The position numbers were made by a program, and so were the translations under genes. The notes below the pieces were generated by a model that was not told where the DNA came from, did not search any database, and was given only the letters and a program-made list of their open reading frames with translations. Below are positions 12,630-60,812 of a stretch of 64,000 bases of DNA, piece by piece. This stretch comes from Candidatus Helarchaeota archaeon. Lineage in GTDB: Archaea > Asgardarchaeota > Lokiarchaeia > Helarchaeales > RDOG01. Position 1 is the stretch's first letter. The number at the start of each line of letters is the position of its first letter. Location: the NCBI GenBank assembly GCA_019058315.1, contig JAHPZH010000004.1, forward strand, positions 416,001-480,000, given 5' to 3'.

Positions 12630-12646
12630 TTAATAATGGATTTTTT

Positions 12647-38046: not shown

Positions 38047-39240
38047 CTATTCTGCTTTTCGTAATTTAAGTACAGATTTTAGTTCATCCTTTAATTCCGA
38101 TCTTATAGTCTTAACTTGTCCTAAATCATCCAAACTTCTGATAACTTCATATTTATTTCTTGCAATTGCTGATTTATTTTGCATTACCCCTTTCATATTA
38201 TCAACCCATTCTCTAATATTTTCAACTAACCCCTCTAAATTAATAAAACGTTCTTCAATAGAAGCACTTAAATTAATTATTATATTCAAAACACGCTCTA
38301 TTGAATTTCCCAAGTGTTTAGTTATATCCTCTTTTTCTTCTAATGGTGGTTTTAGACAATTTCGAATTTCAGAAATTACATTCTTATTTGCTCCCAAATA
38401 ATTATAAATGCTGTATGTAGACATTTCATATTTTAAATCCGTTTTTTCAAACAGTCCAACAATTTGCGTTGCTAATTTTTGAATAGAGTCTTGTATTTCC
38501 TTATTCTCTTTAATATCTGGGTCAACTTTATGTAACAATATTAAAAATTCTGGATTTTCTTTAAAATCAATAATTGTTTTTAAAATATCTTCTAAATATT
38601 TTATAGCGCTTGAATATTTCTCAGGTTCTTGAATATCTATTACGAAAATTAAAAGATCAATATTCGTAAAATATTTTTCAGCATTTTGGAGATATTCATT
38701 TCGAAATTGTATTTGACCACCCATATCCCAAAAAATTAGATCACTATCTAATTTATTGATTTTAACCCTTTCTACTCCCATTGTAGGTGGTAATTTACGA
38801 AGAATGTCAAGCTTAACATTATCTTGTAAAAAGTGTAAAAGGGTGGTTTTTCCTGCATTATCCAATCCGACAATTAAGATTTTCTTTAGATCATAAATCT
38901 CTTGAACTTTTTCGGATTCTTCTTCTTTTTCAATTCCTTCGGTCTCCTTTGGCTCAGGGGCTCTAAGCGCGTTTATTTTCTTTGCAATATAAACCCATTT
39001 ACTAAATCGATATTTTTTAATGCCCAAAGTCCTCAATTTTAAAATTTCATCATGTTTTACTTGTTTATCTGATAATTCTGCAATAGTTGAAATATCTAAA
39101 ACTTTTTGTAGATTTTGGAATGTTTTTTTACCAATTCCCTTAATGTGTGTTAAATCTAAATCCTTAAGTTCCTCTAAATTCGAAATTTCCTTGGGTATAT
39201 CTATTACTTCTTTTATATTATATGGTACTGATTTTATAAT
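38047..39240 (-). CDS. HhH-motif + Arf/Rag-hybrid GTPase + coiled coil (probable ATT start)
   Basis: Frame stays open 68 codons upstream of the listed TTG and encodes LTHIKGIGKKT; GAGGTGA 5 nt before ATT; GLDNAGKTT, WDMGGQ, HKVD. Confidence 0.75.
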   Translation of the reverse strand: MIKSVPYNIKEVIDIPKEISNLEELKDLDLTHIKGIGKKTFQNLQKVLDISTIAELSDKQVKHDEILKLRTLGIKKYRFSKWVYIAKKINALRAPEPKETEGIEKEEESEKVQEIYDLKKILIVGLDNAGKTTLLHFLQDNVKLDILRKLPPTMGVERVKINKLDSDLIFWDMGGQIQFRNEYLQNAEKYFTNIDLLIFVIDIQEPEKYSSAIKYLEDILKTIIDFKENPEFLILLHKVDPDIKENKEIQDSIQKLATQIVGLFEKTDLKYEMSTYSIYNYLGANKNVISEIRNCLKPPLEEKEDITKHLGNSIERVLNIIINLSASIEERFINLEGLVENIREWVDNMKGVMQNKSAIARNKYEVIRSLDDLGQVKTIRSELKDELKSVLKLRKAE

Positions 39241-39264
39241 TTAAATCACCTCTTATTCTTATTT

Positions 39265-39771
39265 TCAGCCGAATTTTAATAGCGAGCCCAATTCTTCAAA
39301 TACCTCTCTAATATTCCTATTTAATAAAGCAGAAGTCTCAAAAAATGCTTTAGCCCTTATTTTCTTTTGAAGTTCTTTGCCTTCTTCATATGAAACTTGT
39401 CGTTCCCCATCTAAATCTGCTTTATTTCCCACAAGAATGAATGGTATTTTTTTCTTCAAACTTTTTCTAATATCCTCTTCCCAATTCATAATATCCTCAT
39501 AAGTATAACTACGAGTAACATCATAAATTAAAATACAACCATCAGTTTGAGTATAGTATTTATTCCAAGACTCTCTTAAAAGAATTTGTCCTCCTAGATC
39601 CCAGATTCTTAATCCTATTTTATTTTTTTTCACATCAATTATTTTATAACCAACATTTACAACTAACGTAGGACGATACGAAACATCAACCAGCTCTCCC
39701 GTAATTGCTCTAAAACAGGTAGTTTTTCCTACTGCATCAGAACCAAGCAAGAGAATTTTATATTCTTTCAT
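39265..39771 (-). CDS. Rab-like small GTPase
   Basis: GSDAVGKTT, WDLGGQ, NKAD, ETSAL. Confidence 0.9.
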   Translation of the reverse strand: MKEYKILLLGSDAVGKTTCFRAITGELVDVSYRPTLVVNVGYKIIDVKKNKIGLRIWDLGGQILLRESWNKYYTQTDGCILIYDVTRSYTYEDIMNWEEDIRKSLKKKIPFILVGNKADLDGERQVSYEEGKELQKKIRAKAFFETSALLNRNIREVFEELGSLLKFG

Positions 39772-39783
39772 ATTTCATCACCT

Positions 39784-40305
39784 TTATTTTTGAATATGAT
39801 CTGTGATTTTCAAGATAAGATTTTCAATCTGAATAAGACGTTTATCAATAGTCTTGATAAAATTGTTAAAAATATTTAAAAAAACATCAAATCTATCCTC
39901 AAAAGATCCAATTTGGACTGGATATGGATTATTAAGCTCAGGATTTTCGTGGTTTATTTTAAAATAATCCTCAAATTCCTCTTTTGTTTTAATTATATCT
40001 ATCCTACTTCCCAAAATATTATAAAAAAATTCAATAAGTGGTAATTTGAAGACTCTACCATTCTCAGTTTTATTTAACAATAGTATTGCCATATCTTTAC
40101 TATTTTCACCACCAAAAAAAGAAGCTATATTGAAATCTTCAGAACTATAAACGGAAAACCTTGGAATGATCATATTTCCTAAAGTTTGACTTGAATATAT
40201 GCACATAATATCTTTTATGCTTACTTCTAATGTTTCCGGATATTGCCAGTCCACCAATATCCCTGTTCTATCATTCCATTTAATCCATATAATTCCTTTA
40301 GGAAT
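39784..40305 (-). CDS. Longin/uDENN-like protein (probable ATT start)
   Basis: Upstream in-frame (I)PKGIIWIKWNDRTG matches the paralog N-terminus MPKGIAIITWNNDTG; GGGGTG 5 nt before ATT. Confidence 0.6.
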   Translation of the reverse strand: MPKGIIWIKWNDRTGILVDWQYPETLEVSIKDIMCIYSSQTLGNMIIPRFSVYSSEDFNIASFFGGENSKDMAILLLNKTENGRVFKLPLIEFFYNILGSRIDIIKTKEEFEDYFKINHENPELNNPYPVQIGSFEDRFDVFLNIFNNFIKTIDKRLIQIENLILKITDHIQK

Positions 40306-40452
40306 AAGAACACCCCTTTTGAATCGATTTTATGATTTTTGTAGAATTTGTATACACCATTTTCTCTTTTTTAAGAGTGAAAGATAAATGAAAGTGATTG
40401 AATGAATTGATGAATTTAAAGAAAGGTGTATATCCTTTGAATTTGAAATCCT

Positions 40453-41352
40453 TTAAATCTGAACCATTGGAGTTGATAAAATCTCTGAGATAACTTTCCA
40501 ATATTTTTTTACATCCCAATCTTTTCCTTCCTTTATAATATTTGAAATTTCTTTATATATTTTCCGTATTTTTAAAGATTCAAAATAATTTATCTTTGGG
40601 GCAATTACTGTTAGCATGAAACGTCTATATCCTCCTCTTACATCCTCATCCAGGATTGAATCGAAATAAATGTATCCATCTCTATGGATATTTTCTATAT
40701 TTAACAAAATCCCCTGAGCTGTATTAAGATTTTCTTGCCCATAGATAGATGCAGTGGCAATGAATAACTGAGGACCAACACTTTGAATCGTAAGTTTAAT
40801 TTCCATCTCCATGGGATAAAATGACATCAATTGAGGACCAACTTTTTCATCCCATAAAAAATAAGATAATGAAACTTCATCTTTTTCTTCCTCTGTTATA
40901 GAAGGTGCCAAATCTATTTTCAATGAAGTAAGAGTTTTACTTATTTCTTTAATTATGGACTTAACTTTATTATTACGGTTAATTTTTCCCTTAATACTCG
41001 CAAGAAGGTCTTCTTCTTTAAAGGGTTTTGTTATGTAATCATCTACCCCAAGTATTTTTCCAAGACGAATATCATCTGGTGTGGAGCGAGCAGTTAGAAA
41101 TATAAAGGGTATGTTACTCCAAATTGGATTTTCAGCAACTTTCTTAAAAAAATCATAACCATTCATTTCAGGCATCATTATATCGCTAATTATAATGTCA
41201 GGAAGCTTTTGTAAACCGTTAAGAATCTTAATGGCATTATTTCCATTTTTAGCGGTAATAACTTTAAAATTATTAAATTCTAATGTCATTTTCAAGTTCG
41301 CCAATATTCCAATATTATCTTCAACAACCATTATCAGAGATTTCAACTTCAT
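40453..41352 (-). CDS. Response regulator: receiver + longin/uDENN-like output domain
   Basis: VVED, ISDIMMP, FLTA, YITKP; C-terminal WDEKVGPQLMSFYP..RGG. Confidence 0.8.
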   Translation of the reverse strand: MKLKSLIMVVEDNIGILANLKMTLEFNNFKVITAKNGNNAIKILNGLQKLPDIIISDIMMPEMNGYDFFKKVAENPIWSNIPFIFLTARSTPDDIRLGKILGVDDYITKPFKEEDLLASIKGKINRNNKVKSIIKEISKTLTSLKIDLAPSITEEEKDEVSLSYFLWDEKVGPQLMSFYPMEMEIKLTIQSVGPQLFIATASIYGQENLNTAQGILLNIENIHRDGYIYFDSILDEDVRGGYRRFMLTVIAPKINYFESLKIRKIYKEISNIIKEGKDWDVKKYWKVISEILSTPMVQI

Positions 41353-41384
41353 TCACCAGTTTTTCATTTTATTATTGATTTGAA

Positions 41385-44054
41385 CTAAGTTTTTATACTC
41401 TCACTTTGAATTTCTTTAAATCGAGGTAGAAATACGAAAAATGTCGAACCTTTACCGTACTCACTCTCTACAAATATATCTCCTTTATGTAATCGAGTTA
41501 AATCACGTGCGATAGGAAGTCCTAATCCTGTTCCAGGAATATCATTTACATCTTCAGATCTGAAAAATCGATCAAATAAAAATGGTAAATCTTTTTCATG
41601 TATACCTCTTCCAAAATCGGAAAATCGAACTAAAACTCCATCATTTTTATGTTTATTATATTCACCTTTATAATGGTCTATTACATCTATTTTTATTTTA
41701 GTTTTTTCATCAGAGTACTTTATAGCATTATCGATAATAATTCTAAAGACTTGTCCAATTCTTTTTGAATCTCCATATAATAATATCTGTTCATTTCCTT
41801 CAACTTCTATAGAAATTTCTTTTGCAGATCGATTAGGTTCCATTTGCATTAAAATATCATTAAGCACCTCTAAAGGTTGGTATTGGGACCATTCGATTTC
41901 TAATCTTTTTTCATCTATCCGAGATACTAGAAGAAGATCATTTACTAACTCCTCCAACACTTTAGCATTCTGAGACATCAGAGATAATAGTAATTCTTGC
42001 TGCCCTTTTGATATATTACTTTCATACTTTTTTAAATTATGGAGCGATTGAATGATTACTGTTATCGGTGTGCGTAATTCATGAGAAACGGTAGAAACAA
42101 ATTGTTTCCGCATATTATCAAAATTAACAAATGGTGAAACGTCACGAACTTCAATTATCGCCCCAAGAGAGGATTTATCGTGAAAACTATTGCCCGTAGA
42201 AACGAACTGTAGATGCAATCCTTCCTTTGGTTCAATAGTCACTATTTTAGGTTTTCCTACTAAAAATAATTCTTTTATCTTCTCATCAAAGGTATTCTGT
42301 GGTTCAAAATAATAATCAAATACATTAGGCATCTGCTGATTAAAAATTCTTTGATAATAATCTTTTAAGGTCCTGTTAACTAATGCTAAATTTCCGTCAC
42401 TATCCAGAACTAATATCCCGTCAGAAATTGTGTTGATAATATATTCAATACGTCTTTTCTCTTCAGCCAAACTCCAAGTCTTTTCTATAACTTGTTCGGC
42501 TAAAGAATCTCTAGCTTTAGCAAGCTCCCTAATTGCCTCCTTCCTTTCAGTAATATCTATAAACGATCCCATCATACAGATAGGCTTACCATTTTTATCC
42601 ATTACAGTACTGACGGAAAGTTGGACATCAAAGAATGAATTATCTTTTCTTTTAGCAATTAATTCACCGATCCAACTTCCTTCTTTGCGAAGTTTTTCTA
42701 TTATCATTTGACCGATGTCTTCATTTTGCCAAAATTCTAAAGCAGATTTTCCTAATAATTCTTCTTTATCATCATAACCCCACATTTTAAGAAAGGAATT
42801 ATTCACATATGTTAAAACACCACTAAGATCAGTAATGGCAATGGCATTAATAGACGATGCTATGGCGCTATCCTTTATTTTCAATTCCTTTTCTACCCGC
42901 TTTCTCTCAGTGATGTCCCTAGATATTTGAATTCCCTTTAATTTACCATCTATATCTATAAATGTCCTACCTTTTGTTCCAAACCAGATATAACTACCAT
43001 TTTTATGCTTGATTCGTAACTCCGCATTTGCATTACCCTTATTTAGACCATTTGCTAGACCTCGATATGCTTGATCAAGATCATTTGGATGAACAAAATC
43101 TAAGCTAACCTTTCCTATCAACTCCTCTTTTGAATAACCCATTAATTTTTTATGAATTTTTTCGTTAATATATTCGAATTCAAATTTGTCATTAATAATC
43201 ATAATTAGATCATTTGCGTTTTCTGTTATAAGTCGATATTTTTCTTCAGATTCTTCTAGTTTTTCCTTAGCTTTCATTTTTTCCGAAATATCATCATACA
43301 CAGCAACAATTTCTCCAGTAGATAATTTATATACGAAGTTTTCTCGCCAACCTTCAATTCTACAATCTTTGTAAAATGAAATAGGAAGGTGTTCTGGAGT
43401 CCCAGTTTTCCAGACTCTTTTGAAAACATCAAATAAACCAAATTCTTCTATACCAGGAAAAACATCCATTACAGATTTTCCTATTACTTGTTCTTTTTTT
43501 ATGTTTTCAATTCTCTCAGCAGCTCTATTAAAATCTTTAAAAATAAAATTCTCTCCATCATTAATAGATTCATAAACTGCAACCCCACTACTCATATTTT
43601 CTATAATATTTCGATATTTTTCCTCTGATTCTTTTAACTCTTTTTTTAAGCTTTGTTTCTTTAAAGCGTCGTTTATTTTATAGATTATTTCTTTCATATG
43701 TGTAGGTTTAACAAAATAACCATCAGCACCTTCATCAAGAGCATTTATAGCATTTTCTATTGTGGCATTACCAGTTACTATCATACAAACCATATCGGGA
43801 TGGATTTCTTTGAAATTTTTGAGAATTTCTATCCCATTCATGTCAGGAAGTTTTAAATCAATTATTGCTGCATTAAAATATTGATTCTTTACTTTTTCAA
43901 TAGCGATTCTTCCTGTATTAGCGATTCCGACTTCATAATCTATCTCCTCAAAAATAGAACAAATTGTTTCACATATCCCCTCATCATCATCCACAATTAG
44001 TATTTTTTTTGAGTTAATGCTAATCACTCCTTTATCTTTCAAAAGAAATCTCAT
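41385..44054 (-). CDS. Hybrid sensor histidine kinase (REC + multiple PAS + HisKA/HATPase)
   Basis: IVDDD..IDLKLPD; about 4 PAS domains; SHELRTP, NAIKYS, DFGRG, GTGLGL. Confidence 0.92.
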   Translation of the reverse strand: MRFLLKDKGVISINSKKILIVDDDEGICETICSIFEEIDYEVGIANTGRIAIEKVKNQYFNAAIIDLKLPDMNGIEILKNFKEIHPDMVCMIVTGNATIENAINALDEGADGYFVKPTHMKEIIYKINDALKKQSLKKELKESEEKYRNIIENMSSGVAVYESINDGENFIFKDFNRAAERIENIKKEQVIGKSVMDVFPGIEEFGLFDVFKRVWKTGTPEHLPISFYKDCRIEGWRENFVYKLSTGEIVAVYDDISEKMKAKEKLEESEEKYRLITENANDLIMIINDKFEFEYINEKIHKKLMGYSKEELIGKVSLDFVHPNDLDQAYRGLANGLNKGNANAELRIKHKNGSYIWFGTKGRTFIDIDGKLKGIQISRDITERKRVEKELKIKDSAIASSINAIAITDLSGVLTYVNNSFLKMWGYDDKEELLGKSALEFWQNEDIGQMIIEKLRKEGSWIGELIAKRKDNSFFDVQLSVSTVMDKNGKPICMMGSFIDITERKEAIRELAKARDSLAEQVIEKTWSLAEEKRRIEYIINTISDGILVLDSDGNLALVNRTLKDYYQRIFNQQMPNVFDYYFEPQNTFDEKIKELFLVGKPKIVTIEPKEGLHLQFVSTGNSFHDKSSLGAIIEVRDVSPFVNFDNMRKQFVSTVSHELRTPITVIIQSLHNLKKYESNISKGQQELLLSLMSQNAKVLEELVNDLLLVSRIDEKRLEIEWSQYQPLEVLNDILMQMEPNRSAKEISIEVEGNEQILLYGDSKRIGQVFRIIIDNAIKYSDEKTKIKIDVIDHYKGEYNKHKNDGVLVRFSDFGRGIHEKDLPFLFDRFFRSEDVNDIPGTGLGLPIARDLTRLHKGDIFVESEYGKGSTFFVFLPRFKEIQSESIKT

Positions 44055-44440
44055 TCTTTATCATTATTTTTTAGTTTCTTTATGGTTTGATTCATAAAAT
44101 TTATTATTTTTTCAATATCAAATGGTTTGTAAAGAATTCCATCGACTCCTAGATCTAGAGCTTCTTTGATAAGCTCTTCTACCGAATAGGCTGTCATCAT
44201 AACAATCTTAATAAATGGTCTTATATTTCTTACCCGCTTTAACGTCTCCACTCCGTCAATACCAGGCATCTTGATATCCAAAAAAGCCAGATCATAAAAC
44301 TTCTCACCAATCAACTCTATAGCTTGATAACCATCATTAGCAACATCTACATCAATATTGAAATCCTCAAAAATATCCTTCATAGTTTCACTTATTCCAA
44401 TATCGTCATCAACGATAAGTACATTAATTTTAACTGTCAT
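44051..44440 (-). CDS. Single-domain response regulator
   Basis: IVDDD, LDIKMP, MTAY, KP. Confidence 0.92.
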   Translation of the reverse strand: MTVKINVLIVDDDIGISETMKDIFEDFNIDVDVANDGYQAIELIGEKFYDLAFLDIKMPGIDGVETLKRVRNIRPFIKIVMMTAYSVEELIKEALDLGVDGILYKPFDIEKIINFMNQTIKKLKNNDKE

Positions 44441-45660
44441 TTCATATTCTCCTTTTTTCCAAATGGTATTCTAATAGTAATTGTTGTTCCTATATCTGAT
44501 TCACTTTCGACTCCTATCTCACCTTCATGTAATTCAATGATATTCTTGACTAAAGTTAATCCCAGTCCAATTCCATAGATTTTAGTACTAAAAAGTGGGT
44601 TGAATATTTTGTATAAGTTTATTTTCGGGATACCCATACCCGAGTCTTTGAATATTATTTCGACTAATGAATCATTTTTTTTGGTTTTTATCCCCAAATT
44701 TCCTCCGTTTGGCATAGCCTCAACAGAATTTTTAATAATATTTTGAAATACTTGATGAATTAAAAGTCTATCGATTTCTATTAACGGAAGACTATAATCC
44801 AAATTTAATTTTAATGCAATATTAGTAGGAAATTCGTAATCTTCTAAAAATTCTTTAATTAAGAGATTAATATCTCCCATTTCAAGATTTAATTTATTTA
44901 AGCTTGTTAAATTAAGTAAATGGGTTACTAATTTATTAGACCTTTCAACCTCCTTTTGCATCATTTTAAGATGTTTTCTAATTTTTTCATCCGAATTTTT
45001 AAGTCTTAAAGTTAGGTAATAGATGGAATTATTAATTACTCCAAGAGGATTTCTAATTTCATGCCCAATTTTCTCTGCAAGAATTCCTAAAGTTGCTAAT
45101 TTCTCCTTATATACATAGTCTTCAAAAAATGTTTCAAGTTTTTGGCTATGATATAATAATTCAAGGTGAGTTTCAACAAGCTCCTTGAACTTTCGAATTA
45201 ACTTTTCATATTTTTTAGTATAACTATTCTCTTTTAAATCAAGTACACAGATAGTGCCAAACACTTCTTCATCAGGCCAGAACAATGGAAAACCTAAATA
45301 GGAAATCATTCCTAGTTTAATGTCTGGATTATTATTCCAAACCTCATTTTTTAAAGCATTGGAAATTAATAACTTCTTTTTAGTCTTAATTACTGTCTCA
45401 CAATAAAGTCCCGCTAAAAGTTCCTTATTTCCTACCTTATATGGATTATTGGCTGTTTCGCTGGAGCAAAAAACTTTAATGTAAGGTTGTTCAACTTTCA
45501 TTATTAATGCTGCTGGGACTTGAATGATTTCTGCTAAAATATTTACAATTTCCTGCCATTTTTCAATTATTTTGTTATATATGATTATATTTTCTTTATT
45601 GAACAGCTTATTTGACAGTGTTTTGTTCCTATCTATAATAATTTCATTTTTATTAGTTAT
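44437..45660 (-). CDS. GAF-domain histidine kinase (start uncertain, upstream of the listed ATG 45501)
   Basis: In-frame upstream KWQEIVNILAEIIQVPAALIMKV (GAF first helix); GLYCETV..YLGFPL..GTICVLD; GHEIRNPL. Confidence 0.8.
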   Translation of the reverse strand: MTNKNEIIIDRNKTLSNKLFNKENIIIYNKIIEKWQEIVNILAEIIQVPAALIMKVEQPYIKVFCSSETANNPYKVGNKELLAGLYCETVIKTKKKLLISNALKNEVWNNNPDIKLGMISYLGFPLFWPDEEVFGTICVLDLKENSYTKKYEKLIRKFKELVETHLELLYHSQKLETFFEDYVYKEKLATLGILAEKIGHEIRNPLGVINNSIYYLTLRLKNSDEKIRKHLKMMQKEVERSNKLVTHLLNLTSLNKLNLEMGDINLLIKEFLEDYEFPTNIALKLNLDYSLPLIEIDRLLIHQVFQNIIKNSVEAMPNGGNLGIKTKKNDSLVEIIFKDSGMGIPKINLYKIFNPLFSTKIYGIGLGLTLVKNIIELHEGEIGVESESDIGTTITIRIPFGKKENMK

Positions 45661-45667
45661 ATCACTT

Positions 45668-47146: not shown

Positions 47147-47257
47147 TTCTTTTTTTCCATTAATTTTTATTCAATAACCTATATACTTTTTTAAATTAAT
47201 TCTAAATCTTTCAGATTTACTCATAATTCAAACCATTTATTCAATTCATTTTTTTTA

Positions 47258-50644: not shown

Positions 50645-50663
50645 TTTTTTCACCTCTTTTTTT

Positions 50664-50945: not shown

Positions 50946-51105
50946 AAAATACCTCCATTTAAAGAAATTTTTTTATTTTTTGAAAAGTAATTTTTTAAAT
51001 TTAATTTAAACGCTAATTTTACCATTTTAATCCTCCATTTGTATTTTAATTCTATTTTCATGTTCTGTCTCAATTTTTTTTGAATGATTTGATTTTCTAA
51101 ATATA

Positions 51106-52454: not shown

Positions 52455-53905
52455 AATTTTTCATCCTTCAATAAAATTTCATTTTTAATTTCAATTCTTT
52501 CTGGAATTGTGAAATAAAACGTTGCTCCCTCCCCAAGTTGCGAATCCACCCAAATTTTCCCCTTATGACGTTCAACAATTTTCTTACATAGAGCTAGACC
52601 TATCCCAGTCCCTGGATATTCTTCTCTAGTGTGTAATCTCTGGAATATAACAAAAATACGTTCAAAATATTCTGGATCTATACCAATACCATTATCTTGA
52701 ACTGAAAAAATCCAATTCTCATTTTTATTCTCAGCTGAGATGAGAATTCGTGGAGGTGCTTTATTACGGAACTTAATAGCATTGCTAATAAGATTTTGAA
52801 ATAGTTGTTCCATCTGTGATCCATCAGCCATAACTTCAGGTAAAGAATTTCGGATAATTATGGCTGAATTCTCTTCGATTAATTTTGTCAAATTATTAAG
52901 TGCTCTATCCAAAATTTTATCGCAATCAACTCGATCAAAAGGTTTACCTCTTGTTCCCACTCTTGAGTAAGTTAATAAATCATTAATAAGTTGTTTCATT
53001 CTGTTTGTCCCATCAACAGCATAATAAATGAAATCATCTGCTTCGTCATCAAGTTTACCTTTATAACGCTTTGCTAGAAGCTGAACATAACTTGAAATCA
53101 TTCGTAAGGGTTCTTGTAAGTCGTGAGAAGCTATATATGCGAATTGTTCTAACTCTTTATTTGAAATTTCTAACCTATTTAAAATGATTTTTAATTTTTC
53201 CTCTGCTCTCTTACGATCGGATATATCTATTCCTACTCCTATCAGAAATATATCTTTATGTATTTCCTTATATTTTCCCATAAAGTAAAAAGGAGTTGAA
53301 ATACCGTTTTTTGATATAAAATTTATTTCAAAATTTAATCTCCCTTTATCAAAAACTTCTTTTAATTTATCATTTAGTATATTTTTCTCTAAAAAAAAAT
53401 CAAGGATGTTCATATTTGAAATTTCTTTTAAAGAATACCCAGAAATTTTTTCTAAGTTTTTATTCCACCTTATAAGTCTTCTATTTTTATCAATTATAAA
53501 AAAAATACCTGGTAAACTATTTATTATAAACTTAGATAGATTTTTTTCTCTTTGTAAATCTTTTTTCATATGGTTACGAATTCTTTCTTTAGAGTGTTCC
53601 AGTTCCAATGTTAGGGATAACATTCCTTTATTTGTTTCTGTCAGTTCCGTTTGTAAAGTCTGTATGGTATTTTCTGCTTCCTTAAGTTTTCTTTTTAATT
53701 CTTTGACGCTCATAGTTAATACTTCTTGAATGTTTCGAAGTTCCAGGGTACGTTGCTCGACTTGCTGTTCTAATTTCTCATTAGCTTTTTCCAATTCCAA
53801 TGTCAAAACCATAATTCCCTTATTAGTTTCCTCCAATTCTATTTGTAAGGAGCGAACTATATTTCTCTCTTCTTGCAATTGTTTTTGTAATTTATTATTG
53901 CTCAT
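52451..53905 (-). CDS. PAS histidine kinase (Cph1-type HK core) with two N-terminal ELxETNxG coiled-coil units
   Basis: [37 protein letters not shown]. Confidence 0.92.
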
Positions 53906-54039
53906 AGAACACCCCGCATCACAATTTCTCCAGTTCTATCACCGATTGAGGCGAGATTTGACTCATTAAGCTCAGTCAGTAAAAAAAATATGGTATTTTT
54001 TTGTCCTTTAAGTCGATTTTTTAATTTTTTAATGTTCAT
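53902..54039 (-). CDS. 45-aa ORF carrying a degenerate ELxETN coiled-coil unit (possibly frameshifted)
   Basis: MNIKKLKNRLKGQKNTIFFLLTELNESN..; AGGGA SD; ATGA overlap with the next gene; VIELEKL continues in another frame. Confidence 0.45.
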   Translation of the reverse strand: MNIKKLKNRLKGQKNTIFFLLTELNESNLASIGDRTGEIVMRGVL

Positions 54040-54141
54040 TAAAATCCCTAACATATTAAAAAGAATTTTCTATCTTTATATAAATCTAATAATATTTTTT
54101 GTAAAATTGAATAAGTAGAACTATATTTTTTCGAAATCAAT

Positions 54142-54963
54142 TTAATTTTCTCCATTCTTAATCTGTTCTTCATTAATAGGAAGTTTAATTGTGAAAATAG
54201 AACCCCTATTAAATCTACTTTTAACTTGTATTGTTCCATTATGTTGCTCAATAATATATTTCGCTATTGGCAGCCCCAACCCCATACCTTTAACTTTAGT
54301 GCTGAAAAGCGGCTCAAATATTCTTTTCAAATTCTCCTTTGGTATGCCCGCACCCGTATCTTTAATTTTTATTTCAATTATATTATTTTTAATAAGAGTC
54401 TTTATCTCTAAAACTCCTTCTTCTTGCATTGCTTGAATGGCATTAATAATGATATTTTGAAAAGCTTGTTGAATTTTTAAAGGATCTAAACTAATTAATG
54501 GTAAATTTTCACCAAGATTTAACAATACTTCAATATTACCATTTATGAGAGTATTGGCTATTGAATTTTTAATTAATAAGTTTATATTACCCTTTTCTAT
54601 ATTAGGTTCCTTTACTATTGCAAAAAAAAGTAGATCGGTGATTATTCTATTTGCCCGAATCACTTCTTTTTGAATAATATTAAGGTGTTTAATTATTTTC
54701 TGATCCACATCTTTAAGTCTCATATTTAAGTAATAAACTGAATTACTAATAACTCCAAGGGGATTCCGTAGCTCATGTCCAACACTTCCTGCAAGCTTTC
54801 CGATCACTGCTAATTTTTCCTTTGAAAACAATTCGTCCTTAGTGCGATCCAACTCCAATGTTAAAGCAACTATTCCACGGTTAGTCTCATCAAGTTCTTT
54901 CTGTAAATAATGAATATTTTCATTTGCCATTCTAAGCTTTTCCATTAATTCGCTATTGTTCAT
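54142..54963 (-). CDS. Histidine kinase with N-terminal ELDETNRG coiled-coil unit and no sensor domain
   Basis: GHELRNPL, NAIQAM, DTGAG, GMGLGL. Confidence 0.9.
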   Translation of the reverse strand: MNNSELMEKLRMANENIHYLQKELDETNRGIVALTLELDRTKDELFSKEKLAVIGKLAGSVGHELRNPLGVISNSVYYLNMRLKDVDQKIIKHLNIIQKEVIRANRIITDLLFFAIVKEPNIEKGNINLLIKNSIANTLINGNIEVLLNLGENLPLISLDPLKIQQAFQNIIINAIQAMQEEGVLEIKTLIKNNIIEIKIKDTGAGIPKENLKRIFEPLFSTKVKGMGLGLPIAKYIIEQHNGTIQVKSRFNRGSIFTIKLPINEEQIKNGEN

Positions 54964-55964
54964 ATTTTTCCCCTCACAACGACCACTGTTGCATCATCAT
55001 CATCTTTTGCTAAAGAACGTAATAAAACTTGAGCAATTTTCGTAGCTGATTCATTTTGAAGATAATAAAAATTATCCCAATTCCAATGTGATATTATACC
55101 ATCTGAATGAAGAATCATGATATAACTAGGATCCCAATGTTTCTCATTGATTACTGGATTTGGGCTTTTAATCCCAAGTATTCCACGTCTTATAATAAAG
55201 TCTATTTTTTCTGAAGAACCAATAACCCTCACTGTAATGTTTCCAATGCTAGCAAGAGTGATTTTTTGCTTTGTCCAATCAAAACGTGCTAGAGCCATTA
55301 CAACGCCACGTGTAGCACTACATGTACGTCCAGTGCCACGAAAAATTTGGTCTAATGGCTGGTCATAATGTTTCATTATATAATTCCATGCAGTTTTAGC
55401 AGCGCGATGTGCAAATTGTCCATGTCCTAGACCATCAATTACTCCTACTAATGCGCTGTGATTCCATCGTTTAATTATAAATGAGTCTCCATTAAGACTC
55501 ATCCCTAATCTTGGACGTGATGCACCATCTATTAAAAAAGGACAGGAACCCGATATTCGCTTATTTTTTATATAATATTTACAAATAATATGCGTATATC
55601 CCGGCTTTGAACTAATTTCAAGTTCGTCCATTATTCTATTAACAATTCCTAAACCATAACCCAAGCTTTTCTTTGTTGAATACCCATTAGTAATTGATTT
55701 TTCAATATTATTAAATCCTGGTCCACTATCCACGGATTCAATTTGAACACCTTGCTTTTTACCATTATTAAGGGAGCTAATTATCAATTCTCCTTTATTA
55801 GCATGTTTTATCAAATTAGTAGCAAGTTCATTAATAACTAGTTCAATATTTTCAGATGTTAATGTATCAAATCCTATAGCAACGCCTAATTGTTTTACTA
55901 TTTGGCGTGCGAGTAAAATATCGCTTCGATTTTTTATTATTATAATTTCTTTGATTTTTTTCAC
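54960..55964 (-). CDS. rsbX: RsbT-like ATPase domain fused to RsbX-type PP2C (SpoIIE) phosphatase
   Basis: ELATNLIKHA, DSGPG, GYGLG; then NGD, IDGLGHG, SDG, DDATV. Confidence 0.88.
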   Translation of the reverse strand: MKKIKEIIIIKNRSDILLARQIVKQLGVAIGFDTLTSENIELVINELATNLIKHANKGELIISSLNNGKKQGVQIESVDSGPGFNNIEKSITNGYSTKKSLGYGLGIVNRIMDELEISSKPGYTHIICKYYIKNKRISGSCPFLIDGASRPRLGMSLNGDSFIIKRWNHSALVGVIDGLGHGQFAHRAAKTAWNYIMKHYDQPLDQIFRGTGRTCSATRGVVMALARFDWTKQKITLASIGNITVRVIGSSEKIDFIIRRGILGIKSPNPVINEKHWDPSYIMILHSDGIISHWNWDNFYYLQNESATKIAQVLLRSLAKDDDDATVVVVRGKI

Positions 55965-55971
55965 GCTACTT

Positions 55972-56379
55972 TTATTTAAGCCATTTAATAATAATCACTT
56001 GTGTTCCTTTACCTACCTTGGAATCAATCTCCATTTCATCCATGAGTCGTTTAGATCCAGGTAATCCCATTCCTAGTCCATTACCAGTACTATAACCTTC
56101 TTGCATTGCTAATTCAATATCTTGGATGCCCGGACCATTATCCTTAAAAATTAACTTGAGCCCAACCTTATTTTCAGAATTAACTTTCATCCATATCATT
56201 TTTCCCGAACCAGCAAATTTATAAATGTTCCTAGCTAGCTCAGAAACTGCTGTAATTATTCTAGTAACGTCTGTCATACCAAATCCCATCGCATTAGCCG
56301 CATTACGTGCCATTCTCCTTGCATTTATTATATCCGTTTCAGAACTAATAGTAACTATATTTTGAGTTGTTAGGGTCAT
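55972..56379 (-). CDS. rsbT: Stressosome switch kinase RsbT
   Basis: TAVSELARNI, DNGPGI, GYSTGNGLGMGLPGSKRLMDE. Confidence 0.95.
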   Translation of the reverse strand: MTLTTQNIVTISSETDIINARRMARNAANAMGFGMTDVTRIITAVSELARNIYKFAGSGKMIWMKVNSENKVGLKLIFKDNGPGIQDIELAMQEGYSTGNGLGMGLPGSKRLMDEMEIDSKVGKGTQVIIIKWLK

Positions 56380-56753
56380 AATTGATGATCACTGCCTATT
56401 AAGTCAATAGCACTATCAACATCAAGCGATGTGATTGCATTACCTAATGTTAGTCCCAATTGTGTTGTTGTAATGGCAACACTAGGACGCATTCCTGCTA
56501 TAACTGTCACACCGCCCATCAAGGCTACCATTTGAGCTGTTTCCGCTATTGTACGGGCAAAAAATGAATCTACTGTCTCAACCATTGAAATATCCATGAC
56601 TAATCCCTTCACCGTATATTTCTCCATCGCATCCAACACTTTCTCCTGTAATTCAGAAACGGAACTATCATCCGGATCGGAGGGCACCGTAACTATCAAT
56701 ATTTCACGAATCTTATTTACTGAAATGCTCTCAAACTTCATTCTATACATCAC
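56376..56753 (-). CDS. rsbS: Stressosome antagonist RsbS (STAS)
   Basis: DISMVETVDSF (phospho-Ser motif), GMRPSVAIT. Confidence 0.93.
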   Translation of the reverse strand: MMYRMKFESISVNKIREILIVTVPSDPDDSSVSELQEKVLDAMEKYTVKGLVMDISMVETVDSFFARTIAETAQMVALMGGVTVIAGMRPSVAITTTQLGLTLGNAITSLDVDSAIDLIGSDHQL

Positions 56754-56770
56754 CCACTAACTTAAACATT

Positions 56771-58042
56771 TCATTTTTTACTATTTTTGTTAATTATTTT
56801 CAATTCCAGTACTTCTAAAGCAAGTTCTAATCCTTCAGCTAAAGATTTACATGTACGGACACCCGAGAGATCAATACCAAGATGAATTAATGTTTGCGCA
56901 ATAGCAGGATTTATTCCAGTTAAAACTACTTTTGAGCCTAGTAAACGAACTGCATTTATTGTATCAACGAGATGTTGGGCAATTCCAGTATCAATAGCTG
57001 GGACACCCGTAATATCTAATAAAGCGACTTTAGAGTGTGTATCTACGATTCTTTGTAGTAAATGTTCCATAATTTGCTGTGTGCGTTCGCTATCTAACAT
57101 GCCTATTATTGGAGTAATTACAACGCCTTCCCAGATTTGTATGACTGGAGTAGAAGATTCAAGTATATCTTCAGCTCTCTTCTCTAATGATTTTCGAAGG
57201 GTGATATCTGAAGCCACTGACGCAAGTGCGGTGATATTTGCGCCCCCAGTAGTAGATGTTGACATGGAGAAATATCTTTTTTGTCCATCTTCCCCAATAA
57301 ATTCAACTTCATAGCCAAGTTCGGGGGTTTTTGTTTTAAAAACTTTTTTGAATATCTCTAATAGTCGATTAGACTCATTAGGAGATACTAAATCAATTAA
57401 TGATGTCTCGACAACATCTTGATATTTGAAACCTAATCGATCGCTTAATGCTTTGTTACTATAAAGAATTTGGCCATTTGTATTGTGTAATATTAAAGCA
57501 TCTTGTGTGTTTTTTACTAAAGTTTGATATTTTTCCACATTTAACATTAGCGTTGAAATATCAATAAAATGTCCAACAGTCTGACCCAGAGATTCTAAAT
57601 TTTTAACATCCTCATTGGTATATCCACCTGCTTTATTAGCAACAGATATCGTGCCAATAGGATTTCCATGATGTCGTAAAGGAATACCTAAAAAAGAATT
57701 GATAGGTGGATGCCCTTCTGGAATACCTCCACTTTCTGGATCTGTAGATGGGGAATTAGAGATGTAACTCTTATTAGTTCTTATAGGAACCAACCAAAGA
57801 TGTTTGCCAACTAGAGCTGATGGTGGGAATACAACTTCTTTTATTGGCATTTTACATGCTTCCCAACCCATCCCATTTATCCCAAGGGTATGATAAGAAC
57901 CTTCCGACATAATGCCAGTTTGACCATACTCACTTTTTGTTAGTTCTACCGCATAATCTATAAGGATTTGTCCTTGTTCATAAATATCTTTTTTACTTCT
58001 CATTTTTGCTATTAAAATATCATTTTTTTCATTATTACTCAT
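56771..58042 (-). CDS. rsbR: RsbR-type stressosome sensor: GAF-PAS-STAS
   Basis: GIPEGHPPINSFLGIPL GAF; PAS; STPVIQIWEG..LDSERT..DITGVPAIDT STAS. Confidence 0.9.
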   Translation of the reverse strand: MSNNEKNDILIAKMRSKKDIYEQGQILIDYAVELTKSEYGQTGIMSEGSYHTLGINGMGWEACKMPIKEVVFPPSALVGKHLWLVPIRTNKSYISNSPSTDPESGGIPEGHPPINSFLGIPLRHHGNPIGTISVANKAGGYTNEDVKNLESLGQTVGHFIDISTLMLNVEKYQTLVKNTQDALILHNTNGQILYSNKALSDRLGFKYQDVVETSLIDLVSPNESNRLLEIFKKVFKTKTPELGYEVEFIGEDGQKRYFSMSTSTTGGANITALASVASDITLRKSLEKRAEDILESSTPVIQIWEGVVITPIIGMLDSERTQQIMEHLLQRIVDTHSKVALLDITGVPAIDTGIAQHLVDTINAVRLLGSKVVLTGINPAIAQTLIHLGIDLSGVRTCKSLAEGLELALEVLELKIINKNSKK

Positions 58043-58108
58043 TCATGTTTCCTCCATTTTTTAAATTTGTTTCATAAAATTAATTTCGTTTCTTATTATC
58101 CCCTCTTT

Positions 58109-60202
58109 CTACGCTATATTATTACTAATTATTTTCATATCTAGCATACTTAATGAAAGTCGAATTCCTTCCATTAATGACTTACATGTAAAAATTCCAG
58201 AGAGATCAATACCTAAATAAACTAAAGTCTGAGCAATAGAGGGTTTTATGCCAGTCAAAACTACGTGTGTACCTAATAAACGAACAGCATTAAATGTATC
58301 GATTAAATGTTGGGCAATTGCAGTGTCTACAGTAGGGACACCTGTAATATCCACCAAAGCGACCTTTGAATGTGTTTCTACAACACGTTCTAATAATTGA
58401 TCCATAATTTGTTGAGCTCTCTCGCTATCCAATGTGCCTATAATCGGTATTACGACAATGCCTTCCCATACTTGAACCACAGGTGTGGAAGCTTCGAATA
58501 TAGCTGCTGTTCTCAGTTCTATTTCCTTAATGCGAGACATATCCCTGAGAGACTCAACTATTCCGATTATTTCGCCATCAATATTCCGATATGGTTGTGC
58601 AGTTATAATACAAGGGATTATAGTACCATCTTTGCGTATATGTTCAACGGGTAGTTCTAATCGATCTTTACCACCTAATATCTGAACTAATGTACATTCA
58701 GGAGTATGACATAAAGGGCTTTTTATTGCATCAAAGCAATTTATTCTTAATGATTCATCTATGCTTAATCCTGATAGTTCTGTAAATGTTTTATTTATTC
58801 GAAGCACATTGAAATTCTTGTCAATTATACGTATCCCGTCTGCTGCGGTATTAAAAACAGCATTCGTTGTATCAATTTCTCTTTTTATATTTTCATTTTT
58901 TTCGGTGAGAATATCCCTCATAAACTTCATGTTAAGGACTAATTCATTAAGAATCTGTTCTAACAATCCAATTTCCCCAGAATCGGTAATCTTCAGTTTC
59001 TGATCAAGATCTCCACCAGCAACAGATGCTATCTGCTTAATAATAATTGATAATCGATTCTGAACGGATTCAGACATATCTAACTCTTTAAGTGGTTTTT
59101 CTTCTTCTTTAAATGCACTAAATGGTTGATTTGAAACATATTTCAAGGGATCTTCACCTGTAAAAGGATGAATCCCACTGAGACTAGGTTTTTTTTCTAT
59201 TTCAAACCCAAGCGATTTTGCAAGCTCTCGATTTGCATCTATCTCAAAGACGTTTTCAACAATGTCTGAATAATTAACTTTTACTGATAATTGGGACCAT
59301 CTTTGCATCTGTGAAAGCATCCATATTCCATATTCGACCCATGGGAAAGGAGCAAAATCAATTCTATCAGGAATAACATGATTTTTCCCCTTACCATCTG
59401 GAAAATCTCCTGATAAAGCTTGTGCTACTGGTATATAATTTTCTTGATTTATATAATATGGAGCAGAGATTTCCTTAGCGATTTCCTTCCTTTCCTCAAC
59501 TTTCGCATTGTGCAATATCCATTCCGCCTCCAGAACGCTTTTCAGCATTATTTTGTATGTATTGGGATACTTTTCTATAAACTTCTGTTTAATTGCAAAG
59601 GCGCAGCAAGGATGACCTTGCCATATCTCCTTAGAAAGCGTATGAATGAATCCTATTTTTTGATAGACTGCTAATTGATTATATGGTTCTGCGGTAAAAT
59701 AACCATCTAATTTGCCCTTTTTTAGATAATATGGCATCAAAGATGGGGAAACTTCTTCCATTTTTACGTCTTTGAGAGGATTTAAACCATTTGCTGCTAA
59801 AAAATAACATAATAAGTAGTAATGCATAGAAAAGCGATATGGTATTCCAAAAGTGAATCCTTTCATATCCTTTACAGATTTTATTCCCAAATGTCTATTC
59901 GAGAGAGTTAAAGCTTGACCATTTATATTTTGCATAGTTACTAGTTTAATTTCTGATTTTTTACCATCTAATCCCAAATGGCAAGCAAGGGGCATTGGCG
60001 AAAGCATATGTGCCGCATCGATATAATCATAAACTAATAATTCCTTGACACCACTCCAACCAGGGGGTTTGATCATTTCCACATTAAGTCCGTTTTTTTC
60101 AAAAATACCATGACTATGAGCATAAATGAGTGGAGCAGAACAAGTAATTGGTATAAATCCAATTTTTAGGTCTGGTTTTTCAATTTTATAATTAATCAAC
60201 AT
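58109..60202 (-). CDS. rsbR: RsbR-type stressosome sensor: CmpA/NrtA/CynA-family anion-binding domain + HAMP-like + PAS + STAS
   Basis: KIGFIPITC, HMLSPMP, NINGQA, FSMH, EPYNQ, GHPCC; no signal peptide; STAS LDSERA..VDTAIA. Confidence 0.9.
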   Translation of the reverse strand: MLINYKIEKPDLKIGFIPITCSAPLIYAHSHGIFEKNGLNVEMIKPPGWSGVKELLVYDYIDAAHMLSPMPLACHLGLDGKKSEIKLVTMQNINGQALTLSNRHLGIKSVKDMKGFTFGIPYRFSMHYYLLCYFLAANGLNPLKDVKMEEVSPSLMPYYLKKGKLDGYFTAEPYNQLAVYQKIGFIHTLSKEIWQGHPCCAFAIKQKFIEKYPNTYKIMLKSVLEAEWILHNAKVEERKEIAKEISAPYYINQENYIPVAQALSGDFPDGKGKNHVIPDRIDFAPFPWVEYGIWMLSQMQRWSQLSVKVNYSDIVENVFEIDANRELAKSLGFEIEKKPSLSGIHPFTGEDPLKYVSNQPFSAFKEEEKPLKELDMSESVQNRLSIIIKQIASVAGGDLDQKLKITDSGEIGLLEQILNELVLNMKFMRDILTEKNENIKREIDTTNAVFNTAADGIRIIDKNFNVLRINKTFTELSGLSIDESLRINCFDAIKSPLCHTPECTLVQILGGKDRLELPVEHIRKDGTIIPCIITAQPYRNIDGEIIGIVESLRDMSRIKEIELRTAAIFEASTPVVQVWEGIVVIPIIGTLDSERAQQIMDQLLERVVETHSKVALVDITGVPTVDTAIAQHLIDTFNAVRLLGTHVVLTGIKPSIAQTLVYLGIDLSGIFTCKSLMEGIRLSLSMLDMKIISNNIA

Positions 60203-60203
60203 T

Positions 60204-60530
60204 CTATTTTTCTCCCTCGATCATTTCTATTTCTGTATTTAAAGTCTGTAAATTACTGATGGGACTTGTACCAGATTTTTTTAATTCACTATATACTTTA
60301 TTTGGCAAGATCGAAATATGTTGAACTAGTTTTTCTATTAAAAAACCCAATAGTAGACAAGCCGGAATTCCAACAAATAGCGCAATTAAATGAGCAAAAA
60401 GCCAATCAAATAAAAAATTTGAACAAAAACCAATTCTAAATGCTGTTACTGTGAAAGTTACTATTTGAGTCATAAAAAATGCAATTAAAATTCTTCCTAA
60501 TACTTTAGCATATTTTTGTGGAATTTTCAT
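60204..60530 (-). CDS. DUF2798-like two-TM membrane protein
   Basis: FFMT.IVT..F..FLFDWL.A.LIA..V.IP pattern; ends 1 nt before rsbR. Confidence 0.65.
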   Translation of the reverse strand: MKIPQKYAKVLGRILIAFFMTQIVTFTVTAFRIGFCSNFLFDWLFAHLIALFVGIPACLLLGFLIEKLVQHISILPNKVYSELKKSGTSPISNLQTLNTEIEMIEGEK

Positions 60531-60620
60531 ACTTTTTCCTCCTTTTCTGAAAGTTTATTTTTGCTTATAATCTCGAATTTAATTTTGTAAATCTCCTAAT
60601 TTTTTTTGATTAGATAGAAA

Positions 60621-60812
60621 TTACCCCTCAATGTAAGTCCTTGAGTTTAAAACTTGAATTTTTTGTTTAATTGAAGCAATTATTGAAGGTTTTTTATTAT
60701 TTGAGTTCAAATGATTATTATTAAGAAGTGGACCAAATACGATACCACAACCCTTACAAACTAACATTTTACGGTAGAAAAACAATTTTTTATCATCACA
60801 GCAATCTTTCAT
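60621..60812 (-). CDS. Small zinc-ribbon protein (TFIIB-ribbon-like)
   Basis: CC..LVCKGCGIV; GGTGA SD upstream. Confidence 0.5.
   Translation of the reverse strand: MKDCCDDKKLFFYRKMLVCKGCGIVFGPLLNNNHLNSNNKKPSIIASIKQKIQVLNSRTYIEG

Follow-up and report, generated by a model that had tools for sequence, protein, structure and literature searches.

Stressosome modules of the rsbRSTX type that pass their output to two-component systems are known from bacteria and have been noted in some archaea as well (PMC9237108). Loci of the Vibrio type (V. vulnificus VvD1/VvD2; Pane-Farre 2005 survey; PMC9237108) have no sigma-B and carry genes for RsbR, RsbS, RsbT and a phosphatase followed by a histidine kinase and receivers. 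KaiA3 has been defined and reported in the Microcystis, Roseiflexus and Chloroflexus lineages (PMC11372060), and in Synechocystis it is known to bind and stimulate KaiC3 (PMC11372060). A small GTPase regulated by a receiver protein together with a roadblock/longin-class domain is represented by the MglA polarity module of Myxococcus xanthus (roadblock GAP MglB, receiver protein RomR with RomX). Here we analyze a minus-strand gene run of a Candidatus Helarchaeota archaeon in which a stressosome module, a KaiA3-KaiB-KaiC cassette and a kinase-longin-GTPase cluster follow each other. The run extends from position 60530 down to 38047 of a 64,000-nt stretch (G000:C1:416001-480000), which is referred to as the window. 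Genes of the run are labeled g01 to g22, G numbers stand for genomes with G000 being the genome studied here, and L numbers stand for fetched loci.

The run sits on a 605-kb contig of G000, an assembly of 5.79 Mb in 12 contigs that is 94% complete with an estimated contamination of 6.6%. It consists of 22 open reading frames (ORFs) in succession on the minus strand, to which all gene coordinates below refer unless stated otherwise. An earlier note on this DNA had claimed a same-strand run of about 22 genes; all 22 ORFs are present, and Pfam backs nearly every domain call, agreeing almost gene for gene. Judged from gene content and gene order elsewhere, the run reads as a mosaic of three modules, A (g02-g07), B (g08-g14, perhaps including g15) and C (g16-g22), each of which is conserved by itself in other genomes. 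Modules A and B appear to be bacterial-type units placed beside a native Asgard module C, and an ancestral Asgard unit is not supported. On balance, we lean towards a composite island, in which A and B were transferred from bacteria and are joined to each other at g08-g09, and in which C is native.

Module A starts with two RsbR-type sensors. The first, g02 (58109-60202), has the architecture NMT1_2-HAMP-PAS-STAS (Pfam NMT1_2, E 1e-66; STAS, E 2e-15). Its N-terminal domain is closest to the cytosolic regulatory domains of NrtC/CmpC, subunits of nitrate/bicarbonate transporters (E 5e-44), and its STAS domain to Listeria RsbR (E 3e-31). The second sensor, g03 (56771-58042), is a GAF-PAS-STAS protein according to Pfam that aligns with residues 138-276 of Listeria RsbR (E 2e-29). 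The two phospho-acceptor positions are conserved in g03, as DS and DT compared with DT and DT in Listeria. RsbS is encoded by g04 (56376-56753), a single STAS domain of 125 aa, whose best PDB matches are RsbS chains (E 3e-19) and which is most similar to Listeria RsbS. The phospho-serine within its DSF motif is conserved and aligns with the serine mutated to alanine in entry 9o4r; identity to relatives from bacterial modules amounts to 63-68%. Directly after rsbS, g05 (55972-56379) encodes an RsbT switch kinase of 135 aa (Pfam HATPase_c_2). At E<=1e-20 it has 3803 relatives; those ranking highest are 64-68% identical and named RsbT by JGI. Residues of its N-box and G-box are invariant in the RsbT alignment.

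The genome has one further RsbT-like domain, at the N terminus of g06 (54960-55964); otherwise g05 is the sole copy. In g06, an RsbT-like kinase domain is fused to a PP2C phosphatase in the role of RsbX (HATPase_c_2 and SpoIIE), the SpoIIE/PP2C match of the C-terminal half being barely above the cut-off (25.1 bits versus 25). The label rsbX previously given to this gene holds for the phosphatase and had to be corrected for the second RsbT-like kinase domain. A 338-aa fusion of the same type follows RsbT in L081, L082, L084, L186 and L188 (345 aa in L188) with 44-53% identity. The module ends with g07 (54142-54963), a sensor-less histidine kinase (Pfam HisKA and HATPase_c). STAS, RsbT and the kinase-PP2C fusion are confined to this locus within G000.

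The two RsbRs (g02, g03) and RsbS (g04) are predicted to form a STAS core that holds RsbT (g05). Several proposals of the earlier note were borne out at this point: RsbR STAS domains, RsbS and RsbT are homologous to the known proteins with intact phospho-sites in RsbR and RsbS, a histidine kinase and receivers directly follow the stressosome genes as a two-component output, and the RsbRs carry an NrtC/CmpC-like cytosolic anion-binding domain and GAF-PAS, in agreement with sensors for chemical cues. As in the Vibrio-type locus, the phospho-sites of RsbR and RsbS are conserved. In contrast to that locus, there are two RsbRs with NrtC-like anion-binding and GAF-PAS sensors, a second RsbT-like kinase domain is joined to the phosphatase, the kinases downstream have an ETN(R/K)G motif near their N terminus, and the downstream system proceeds to KaiA3-KaiB-KaiC in place of c-di-GMP enzymes. 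Homology also extends to the STAS core proteins and RsbT of the Bacillus subtilis and Listeria stressosomes, whereas RsbU, RsbV, RsbW and a sigma factor are lacking here and the output runs via histidine kinases.

The order RsbR-RsbS-RsbT-(kinase+PP2C, 338 aa)-histidine kinase, in most cases then a response regulator, was found in the bacterial-type loci L081, L082 and L084/85, which hold the closest RsbT relatives. In the Asgard loci L186, L188, L191 and L192, the genes of module A are arranged in the same way and the GC content is low. Stressosome modules were detected in about eight other Asgard genomes by a profile search covering 400 members of the phylum. A second and different adjacency of stressosome and KaiC-family genes was observed in an Asgard family with a GC content of about 0.48. 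There, two of three closed genomes (L190, G063:C1:2284000-2303999, at 337-4758; also L189, G065) carry a single-domain KaiC-like ATPase gene and a DUF7504/KaiC-like gene directly upstream of RsbR-RsbS-RsbT-(PP2C+kinase), with no two-component genes after it. Four KaiC-like genes lie within 12 kb in this region, and the adjacency may be due to chance.

A probable connection between modules A and B emerged from a sequence motif. The kinase directly after a stressosome module carries E-x-(E/D)-(T/S)-N-(R/K)-G-x3-L-x2-E-L within its first 45-50 residues or so. Kinases with this ETN(R/K)G motif are encoded in the bacterial-type loci L081, L082 and L084/85 as well as in the Asgard loci L186 and L188, and the motif is degenerate in L191 and L192. 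A search of all six frames of the 5.79 Mb of G000 for the strict motif yielded three occurrences, one in g07 (ETNRG, in a coiled coil at residues 25-39) and two in g08 (both ETNKG). For comparison, 160 Kai loci, each with a KaiA3 relative, were collected from genome and metagenome scans (the best 80 of 166 and the best 80 of 190), all named ones being bacterial. Among their ORFs the motif appeared once, in L079. This locus from a Planctomycetota metagenome-assembled genome (MAG) is the sole stressosome-free Kai locus with an ETNRG kinase (ELAETNRGILALYAELEDK; ORF from 8291), the motif being located just before HisKA.

The gene carrying two of the motifs, g08 (52451-53905), encodes a PAS-HisKA-HATPase histidine kinase. 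For its core (residues 227-470), identity is 58-64% with the kinases of bacterial Kai cassettes, only 30-34% with bacterial stressosome kinases, and 60% with the stressosome-linked Asgard kinase of L188. The following g09 (52008-52454) is a single-domain response regulator of the Rcp1/RcpA type (PDB RcpA, E 2e-45; Rcp1, E 2e-43), with 60-68% identity to copies from bacterial Kai cassettes and 74% to the copy of L009. In G219 (L188), a stressosome is succeeded by a 724-aa kinase that combines the motif with a core of the g08 type (60%) and then by Rcp1-type response regulators (69% and 57%), with no Kai genes. In the same locus (G219:C36:44000-63999, at 10464-17461; class Lokiarchaeia), a histidine kinase and an Rcp1-type response regulator are also located upstream of RsbR-RsbS-RsbT-(kinase+PP2C). 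In G000, g08 and g09 overlap by 4 nt, and g09 overlaps the KaiA3 gene g10 by 4 nt. Because of the motif and the core and response regulator comparisons, the g08-g09 pair belongs to both neighborhoods, as output pair of A and as input pair of B. This shared kinase/receiver pair and the motif provide better support for an A-B connection than adjacency alone, and we consider A and B to be probably wired together.

A direct linkage of the two modules was also present in L009, a locus of the bacterial genome G061 (L20 present, S8e absent). It shows the order RsbR-RsbS-RsbT-PP2C-kinase-histidine kinase (63%)-response regulator (74%)-KaiA3-KaiB-KaiC (70%). The proposal that the stressosome output is a Kai system is supported by the motif and core of g08 and by L009, and qualified by the rarity of the linkage described below.

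Module B continues with g10 (51106-52011), a KaiA3-family protein composed of a receiver and a helical KaiA3-type C-terminal domain of about 180 aa. Residues 7-270 are 37% identical to the Microcystis, 42-44% to Roseiflexus and 46-48% to Chloroflexaceae proteins (E 1e-52 to 1e-84); identity to the Anaerolineae proteins is 50%. Twenty-five relatives of the C-terminal domain were found in a collection of 5.8 billion proteins, most of them with a receiver domain and the few named ones bacterial. The AlphaFold 2 model (pLDDT 86) displayed an all-helical C-terminal domain with a pLDDT of around 90. In fold searches with the full model (Foldseek PDB, VIA-align wide), all matches listed were to receiver domains, and a KaiA similarity was not recovered. 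The genes of KaiA3 relatives are always located before kaiB-kaiC. This order is kept in g10-g11-g12, as in L001-L005 and L009, and is followed here by a second kaiB-kaiC pair, g13-g14.

The first KaiB, g11 (50664-50945; Pfam KaiB, E 6e-30), and the second, g13 (48775-49080; E 3e-29), are 65% identical. Both KaiCs, g12 (49130-50653; Pfam KaiC, E 3e-114; PDB KaiC 8zn5, E 1e-218) and g14 (47258-48778; Pfam KaiC, E 4e-121), are double-domain proteins, 68% identical to each other. They keep both Walker A motifs (GATGTGKT), the EE pairs (FEES) and the HISTITD phospho-site block. The variant GSAKT in the Walker A motif of the CI domain was considered as an archaeal oddity; it occurs in 72 of 89 KaiC relatives and is the family norm. 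The suggested REC-KaiA-like and kaiBC genes can be specified as a KaiA3-KaiB-KaiC-type set on the grounds of g10 homology, gene order and intact KaiC motifs. Such a set might act as an oscillator, and a timer or a stress switch would be equally possible. It shares with the KaiA3-KaiB3-KaiC3 system of Synechocystis sp. PCC 6803 and its orthologues (PMC11372060) the KaiA3 receiver plus helical C-terminal domain (37-50% identity), the kaiA3-kaiB-kaiC order and the two-domain KaiC with an S/T phospho-site block. In contrast, the host is a non-phototrophic sediment archaeon, two kaiB-kaiC pairs follow one kaiA3, a stressosome lies upstream and, unlike in Synechocystis, there is no KaiA1B1C1 system.

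Several observations point to a bacterial origin of this cassette. The order histidine kinase-response regulator-KaiA3-KaiB-KaiC was found by tblastn in every well-covered mapped locus, often followed by a REC-histidine kinase, and identities of KaiC reach 74%. When 400 Asgard genomes (399 besides G000) were searched with a profile of the KaiA3 C-terminal domain, no further copy was detected. Among 60 classmates, just two have double-domain KaiC of this type, which is about 50% identical. A phylogeny was computed for KaiC (91 sequences), in which the two copies nest in separate bacterial clades: g12 is sister to Bacteroidota KaiC (SH-aLRT 98), and g14 clusters with sequences from Nitrospirota and L009 (91/83), apart from g12. 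A recent local duplication as the source of g12 and g14 is not supported, as they are 68% identical and not sisters in the tree. The Anaerolineae contig L051 contains two tandem KaiA3-KaiB-KaiC sets after one histidine kinase-response regulator pair (3305-10151); therefore, multiplied Kai sets exist in possible donor lineages. The last gene of the bacterial-type part may be g15 (45668-47146), a REC-PAS-histidine kinase according to Pfam, which lies at the junction with the native part. The REC-histidine kinases after KaiC in bacterial cassettes are 35-51% identical to g15, the resemblance of the N-terminal half being 46-51%, and its kinase core is 63% identical to a REC-GAF-histidine kinase of Helarchaeota.

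Module C comprises a GAF-histidine kinase according to Pfam (g16, 44437-45501), a single-domain response regulator (g17, 44051-44440; Pfam REC, E 3e-29), a REC-PAS-PAS-histidine kinase, again by Pfam (g18, 41385-44054), and a receiver fused to a longin-like domain (g19, 40453-41352; REC plus about 170 aa), followed by an Asgard-specific protein and two GTPases (g20-g22). The Helarchaeota contig L166 (GC 0.28) encodes a REC-GAF-histidine kinase, a response regulator, a REC-PAS-histidine kinase (41% identical to g18), a REC-X protein (66% to g19), a 137-aa protein, a Ras protein and the start of a Rag-like protein in this order. A gene for a g18-type kinase immediately precedes a REC-longin gene in L166, G001, G006, G003 and L168 and at two other sites of G000, and g18 is likely the cognate kinase of g19. 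On these comparative grounds, module C is native to Asgard archaea because of the synteny with L166 and the kinase/REC-longin pairs in G001, G003, G006 and G000.

For the C-terminal domain of g19, 34 relatives were found, which form an Asgard-only family: every named member is Asgard, and the best, from Helarchaeota, is 66% identical. In the AlphaFold 2 model (pLDDT 84), residues 161-293 form a beta-beta-alpha-beta-beta-beta-alpha-alpha succession (E161-168, E172-179, H189-210, E213-219, E224-234, E242-251, H256-274, H281-293), which corresponds to the longin topology; the pLDDT of these blocks is mostly 78-94 with one of 63. Weak Folliculin matches were obtained with Pfam for three of 27 family members (best E 0.012), and a protein atlas gave an NPR2 lead (score 0.75). 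PDB sequence and profile searches with the C-terminal domain returned no longin entry, and the matches listed in fold searches with the full model were to receivers. The modeled domain is regarded as longin-like by topology, homology to longin proteins not being established.

The following g20 (39784-40257) is an Asgard-specific protein of 157 aa with no Pfam family. It has 14 relatives among 1.84 billion representatives and is 56% identical to its L166 counterpart (137 aa); a paralogue is located directly before a Ras gene at C1:505405. TackOD1 is an archaeal signaling output domain that is otherwise attached to archaeal receiver domains. In four relatives of g20 (P0189, P0192, P0193, P0195), the N-terminal 85-135 residues or so are fused to TackOD1 (PF18551). 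As a longin, g20 receives no support from its sequence, and BLASTP detected no similarity to the C-terminal domain of g19 or to the 158-aa protein of the plus-strand cassette described below.

The GTPases are g21 (39265-39771), a Ras/Rab-like protein (Pfam Ras, E 3e-38) 72% identical to its L166 counterpart, and g22 (38047-39036). As the scores of g22 for Gtr1_RagA (PF04670; 78.8 bits against a cut-off of 22) and Arf (75.7 bits) are nearly equal, Rag/Arf-like seems a safe name. The apparent gap between g21 and g22 is mostly ORF in phase with g22. The g22 frame is open for about 63 codons before the called TTG start (39037-39264); an HhH-like stretch (IKGIGKKTFQNLQKV) is encoded in this part, in which none of the codons ATG, GTG and TTG occurs. 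In L166, the orthologue of g22 was called about 67 aa longer. The start of g22 is likely non-canonical or mis-called.

GTPase genes of MK-D1 are generally located outside operons with longin or roadblock genes (PMC10933270), and since they are usually unlinked, the module C cluster is an exception. In contrast to the M. xanthus MglA module, a single protein here unites the receiver with the longin-like domain, a dedicated kinase gene is present upstream, and the adjacent GTPases are of Asgard Ras/Rag-like types. FLCN-FNIP and GATOR1 NPRL2 (PMC12290439, PMC10933270) resemble the cluster in that a longin-type domain is encoded beside a Rag-like GTPase and by the weak Folliculin/NPR2 signals. In contrast to these complexes, sequence similarity is marginal, a DENN part is absent and the receiver fusion is prokaryotic in logic. 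The g18-type kinase would phosphorylate the REC-longin protein g19, which together with g20 would probably regulate the Ras-like g21 and the Rag-like g22. In another Asgard archaeon of the same order, L179 (G003:C24:1-3744) carries a PP2C gene, then a 559-aa HATPase_c_2 (RsbT-like)-PAS-HisKA-HATPase_c fusion and then a REC-longin gene; a kinase domain of the partner-switch type is therefore joined to the kinase preceding REC-longin. No STAS domain was found in G003, which is 82% complete.

The composite island suggests the following mechanism for modules A and B. A chemical cue would release RsbT from the STAS core made of the RsbRs and RsbS, and g06 with its kinase domain and PP2C would reset this core. 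The target of RsbT would be the ETN(R/K)G coiled coil at the N terminus of g07 and g08, which RsbT might bind or phosphorylate at the threonine. The kinases g07 and g08 would then alter the phosphorylation of g09 and of the KaiA3 receiver, and KaiA3 would set KaiC autophosphorylation. KaiB-KaiC might serve as a timer, an hourglass or a stress switch, which is not a proven circadian clock. The two-component system at the output of the stressosome would in this way be the input system of the Kai cassette, through g08-g09.

A number of findings weigh against such a joint A-B system. Of the 90 Kai loci for which 5 kb or more of upstream sequence is available, one has a stressosome. The linkage was not found in 60 relatives of the same class, and the family mate G001 has no STAS, RsbT or KaiA3. 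The single linked bacterial locus L009 has an RsbT that is 49% identical to g05 and a kinase without the ETN motif, which is why its linkage is probably a separate event; the linkages in L009 and G000 may be unrelated or differ in mechanism. The synteny between stressosome and Kai genes proposed earlier is thus substantiated in one bacterium and not in the 60 same-class relatives, and selection for the A-B combination cannot be demonstrated. In a study of Vibrio, binding of RsbT to its downstream kinase was not detected (PMC9237108). Moreover, PDB sequence and profile searches with the C-terminal domain of g10 gave no KaiA, each module occurs elsewhere without the others, and the intergenic gaps of 111-236 nt could hold promoters.

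In an alternative, the three modules are independent neighbors with their own promoters, inputs and outputs, two bacterial-type cassettes landed in a signaling-rich region, and the shared orientation and proximity would mean nothing functionally outside the individual modules. In favor of this alternative, every module can stand alone, the linkage is rare, AT-rich gaps of 111-236 nt are placed at or near the module borders g07/g08, g14/g15 and g15/g16, and the window is crowded with kinases, receivers and GTPases on both strands. The border between A and B, however, lies inside the g08 protein, which unites the stressosome-type motif in two copies with a Kai-type core, and g08 to g10 overlap by 4 nt. 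Furthermore, L009 has the same stressosome-Kai linkage with a different RsbT lineage, and stressosome, g08-type kinase and Rcp1-type response regulator follow each other in G219. We regard three independent neighbors as a possible but rather doubtful explanation.

In another alternative, RsbT would signal straight to the helical C-terminal domain of KaiA3, viewed as a member of the RsbU N-domain fold class, and bypass the kinases. RsbU_N is the docking domain for RsbT and is present on some proteins downstream of stressosomes (PMC9237108). A weak RsbU_N match was returned by Pfam for one of 21 KaiA3 C-terminal domains (E 0.036), and KaiA3 is encoded in both stressosome-Kai loci. KaiA-C and RsbU_N belong to one structural superfamily in SCOP. 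However, the match is single and weak, profile and fold searches gave no RsbU or KaiA link for the domain, a stressosome is lacking beside nearly all KaiA3 cassettes, and the ETN motif on g07 and g08 is a better-supported target. Direct signaling to KaiA3 is consequently considered improbable.

Assignment of the locus to an Asgard host, which the earlier note had proposed, was confirmed. The genome is archaeal because ribosomal protein S8e is encoded and L20 is lacking, and the nearest named relatives of g19 come from Helarchaeota and Promethearchaeota MAGs. The GC content of all 12 contigs is 0.29-0.33, and 77 Ras-like matches were counted in G000. The cluster has a GC content of 0.28-0.36 like its surroundings, compared with 0.53-0.63 in the nearest bacterial loci. 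A Logan contig, built by a different assembler from a sediment run, covers 39000-58999 with 0 differences, no joints and a flat depth of 17.5. This run is the single DNA run found to hold the stretch and the probable source of the MAG, so the check is only partly independent; among RNA runs, none was found to contain it. Chimerism at the block junctions, raised earlier as a possibility, was not borne out, and an assembly chimera is unlikely because of the contig of the second assembler, which spans the junctions, and the host-like GC content. An assembly or binning artefact that placed a piece of bacterial DNA in an archaeal contig, although in keeping with the estimated contamination of 6.6% and the bacterial nearest relatives of modules A and B, is hardly credible in view of a block GC matching the 605-kb contig and all 12 contigs, Asgard-specific genes on both flanks, the uniform Logan contig, and stressosome modules in other low-GC Asgard genomes.

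For a coupling of B to C, the evidence consists solely of adjacency and shared orientation, and nothing beyond adjacency was found for the previously suggested link to eukaryote-like GTPase signaling. The receivers of g15 and g18 could accept phosphoryl input from upstream kinases. Module C is present without A or B in relatives, and the simplest history would be insertion of a bacterial-type block upstream of a pre-existing Asgard kinase-GTPase cluster. One chain of information from an anion- or nutrient-sensing stressosome via the KaiA3-KaiB-KaiC timer and g15, g16 and g18 to the receiver-longin protein and the Ras- and Rag-like GTPases is unlikely. If true, it would represent a time-gated prokaryotic forerunner of nutrient-to-Rag signaling in the archaeal lineage closest to eukaryotes.

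The spacing of the genes bears on the transcription units. ATGA overlaps had been claimed for seven sites (56376, 54960, 52451, 52008, 48775, 44437 and 44051). All seven 4-nt overlaps were found, with ATGA at six of them and GTGA at 52008. Five intergenic gaps measure 111-236 nt (g07/g08, g10/g11, g14/g15, g15/g16 and g19/g20). The largest, the AT-rich A/B spacer of 236 nt (53906-54141), is a candidate terminator plus promoter, with two T runs (T5 and T8) and a TATA-like stretch (TTTATATAAAG). T6 and T7 runs follow the stop codon of g22. Runs of T6 or longer were counted 24 times in 21.2 kb of genic sequence and four times in 1.8 kb outside genes. As they are nearly as frequent inside genes as outside, oligo-T cannot delimit transcripts here. 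The run can tentatively be divided into the sub-operons g01-g07, g08-g10, g11-g14, g15, g16-g19 and g20-g22, which are possibly co-regulated; one transcript for all 22 genes, a "superoperon", is unproven.

The stressosome module and its kinase layout in bacteria are already known, and archaeal occurrence is documented in the literature (PMC9237108). We found no report in the literature of a stressosome with a Kai cassette as downstream system, of a KaiA3-type set in an archaeon, or of a conserved cluster of kinase, receiver-longin and Ras/Rag genes; two papers mention both stressosomes and KaiC, and they do not appear to connect the two. The account as a whole is drawn from one MAG and comparative inference. 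For stressosomes without sigma-B, the ETN(R/K)G motif offers a testable docking or phospho-acceptor site through which the signal may exit in bacteria and archaea, and a Kai cassette would be a new kind of stressosome output. A KaiA3-type set with an identifiable chemical input provides a way to ask what the KaiA3 receiver listens to. Matching Asgard GTPases to their regulators is hard, the genes being usually unlinked (PMC10933270); the module C cluster names candidate partners and suggests His-Asp phosphorelay control of Asgard GTPases. With this locus, it becomes testable whether signals from chemical sensors reach a protein timer and, perhaps, eukaryote-like GTPases.

The remaining genes in and around the run are less closely tied to the three modules. 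A second GTPase cassette on the plus strand (34907-38015) converges on g22. It encodes a Ras protein (34907-35449), a 158-aa protein (35442-35918), a Rag-like protein 32% identical to g22 (35915-36871), and a longin-like N-terminal domain fused to Ras (36966-38015). This N-terminal domain is weakly similar to the C-terminal domain of g19 (25% identity over 121 aa, E 0.01). At the other end, g01 (60204-60530) encodes a small DUF2798 protein (Pfam PF11391, E 1e-10) and ends 1 nt before g02. Its membership in the system is uncertain because a counterpart was present in none of the related loci compared.

Beyond g01, the plus strand of the window carries a REC-DUF835-HTH regulator gene (61645-62766) and a multi-PAS protein gene (63007-63999), both transcribed away from g01. 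L166 contains a REC-PAS-DUF835 gene and a PAS kinase gene upstream of its module C cluster. The plus-strand genes at 61645-63999 may mark the ancestral neighborhood into which the bacterial-type block was inserted.

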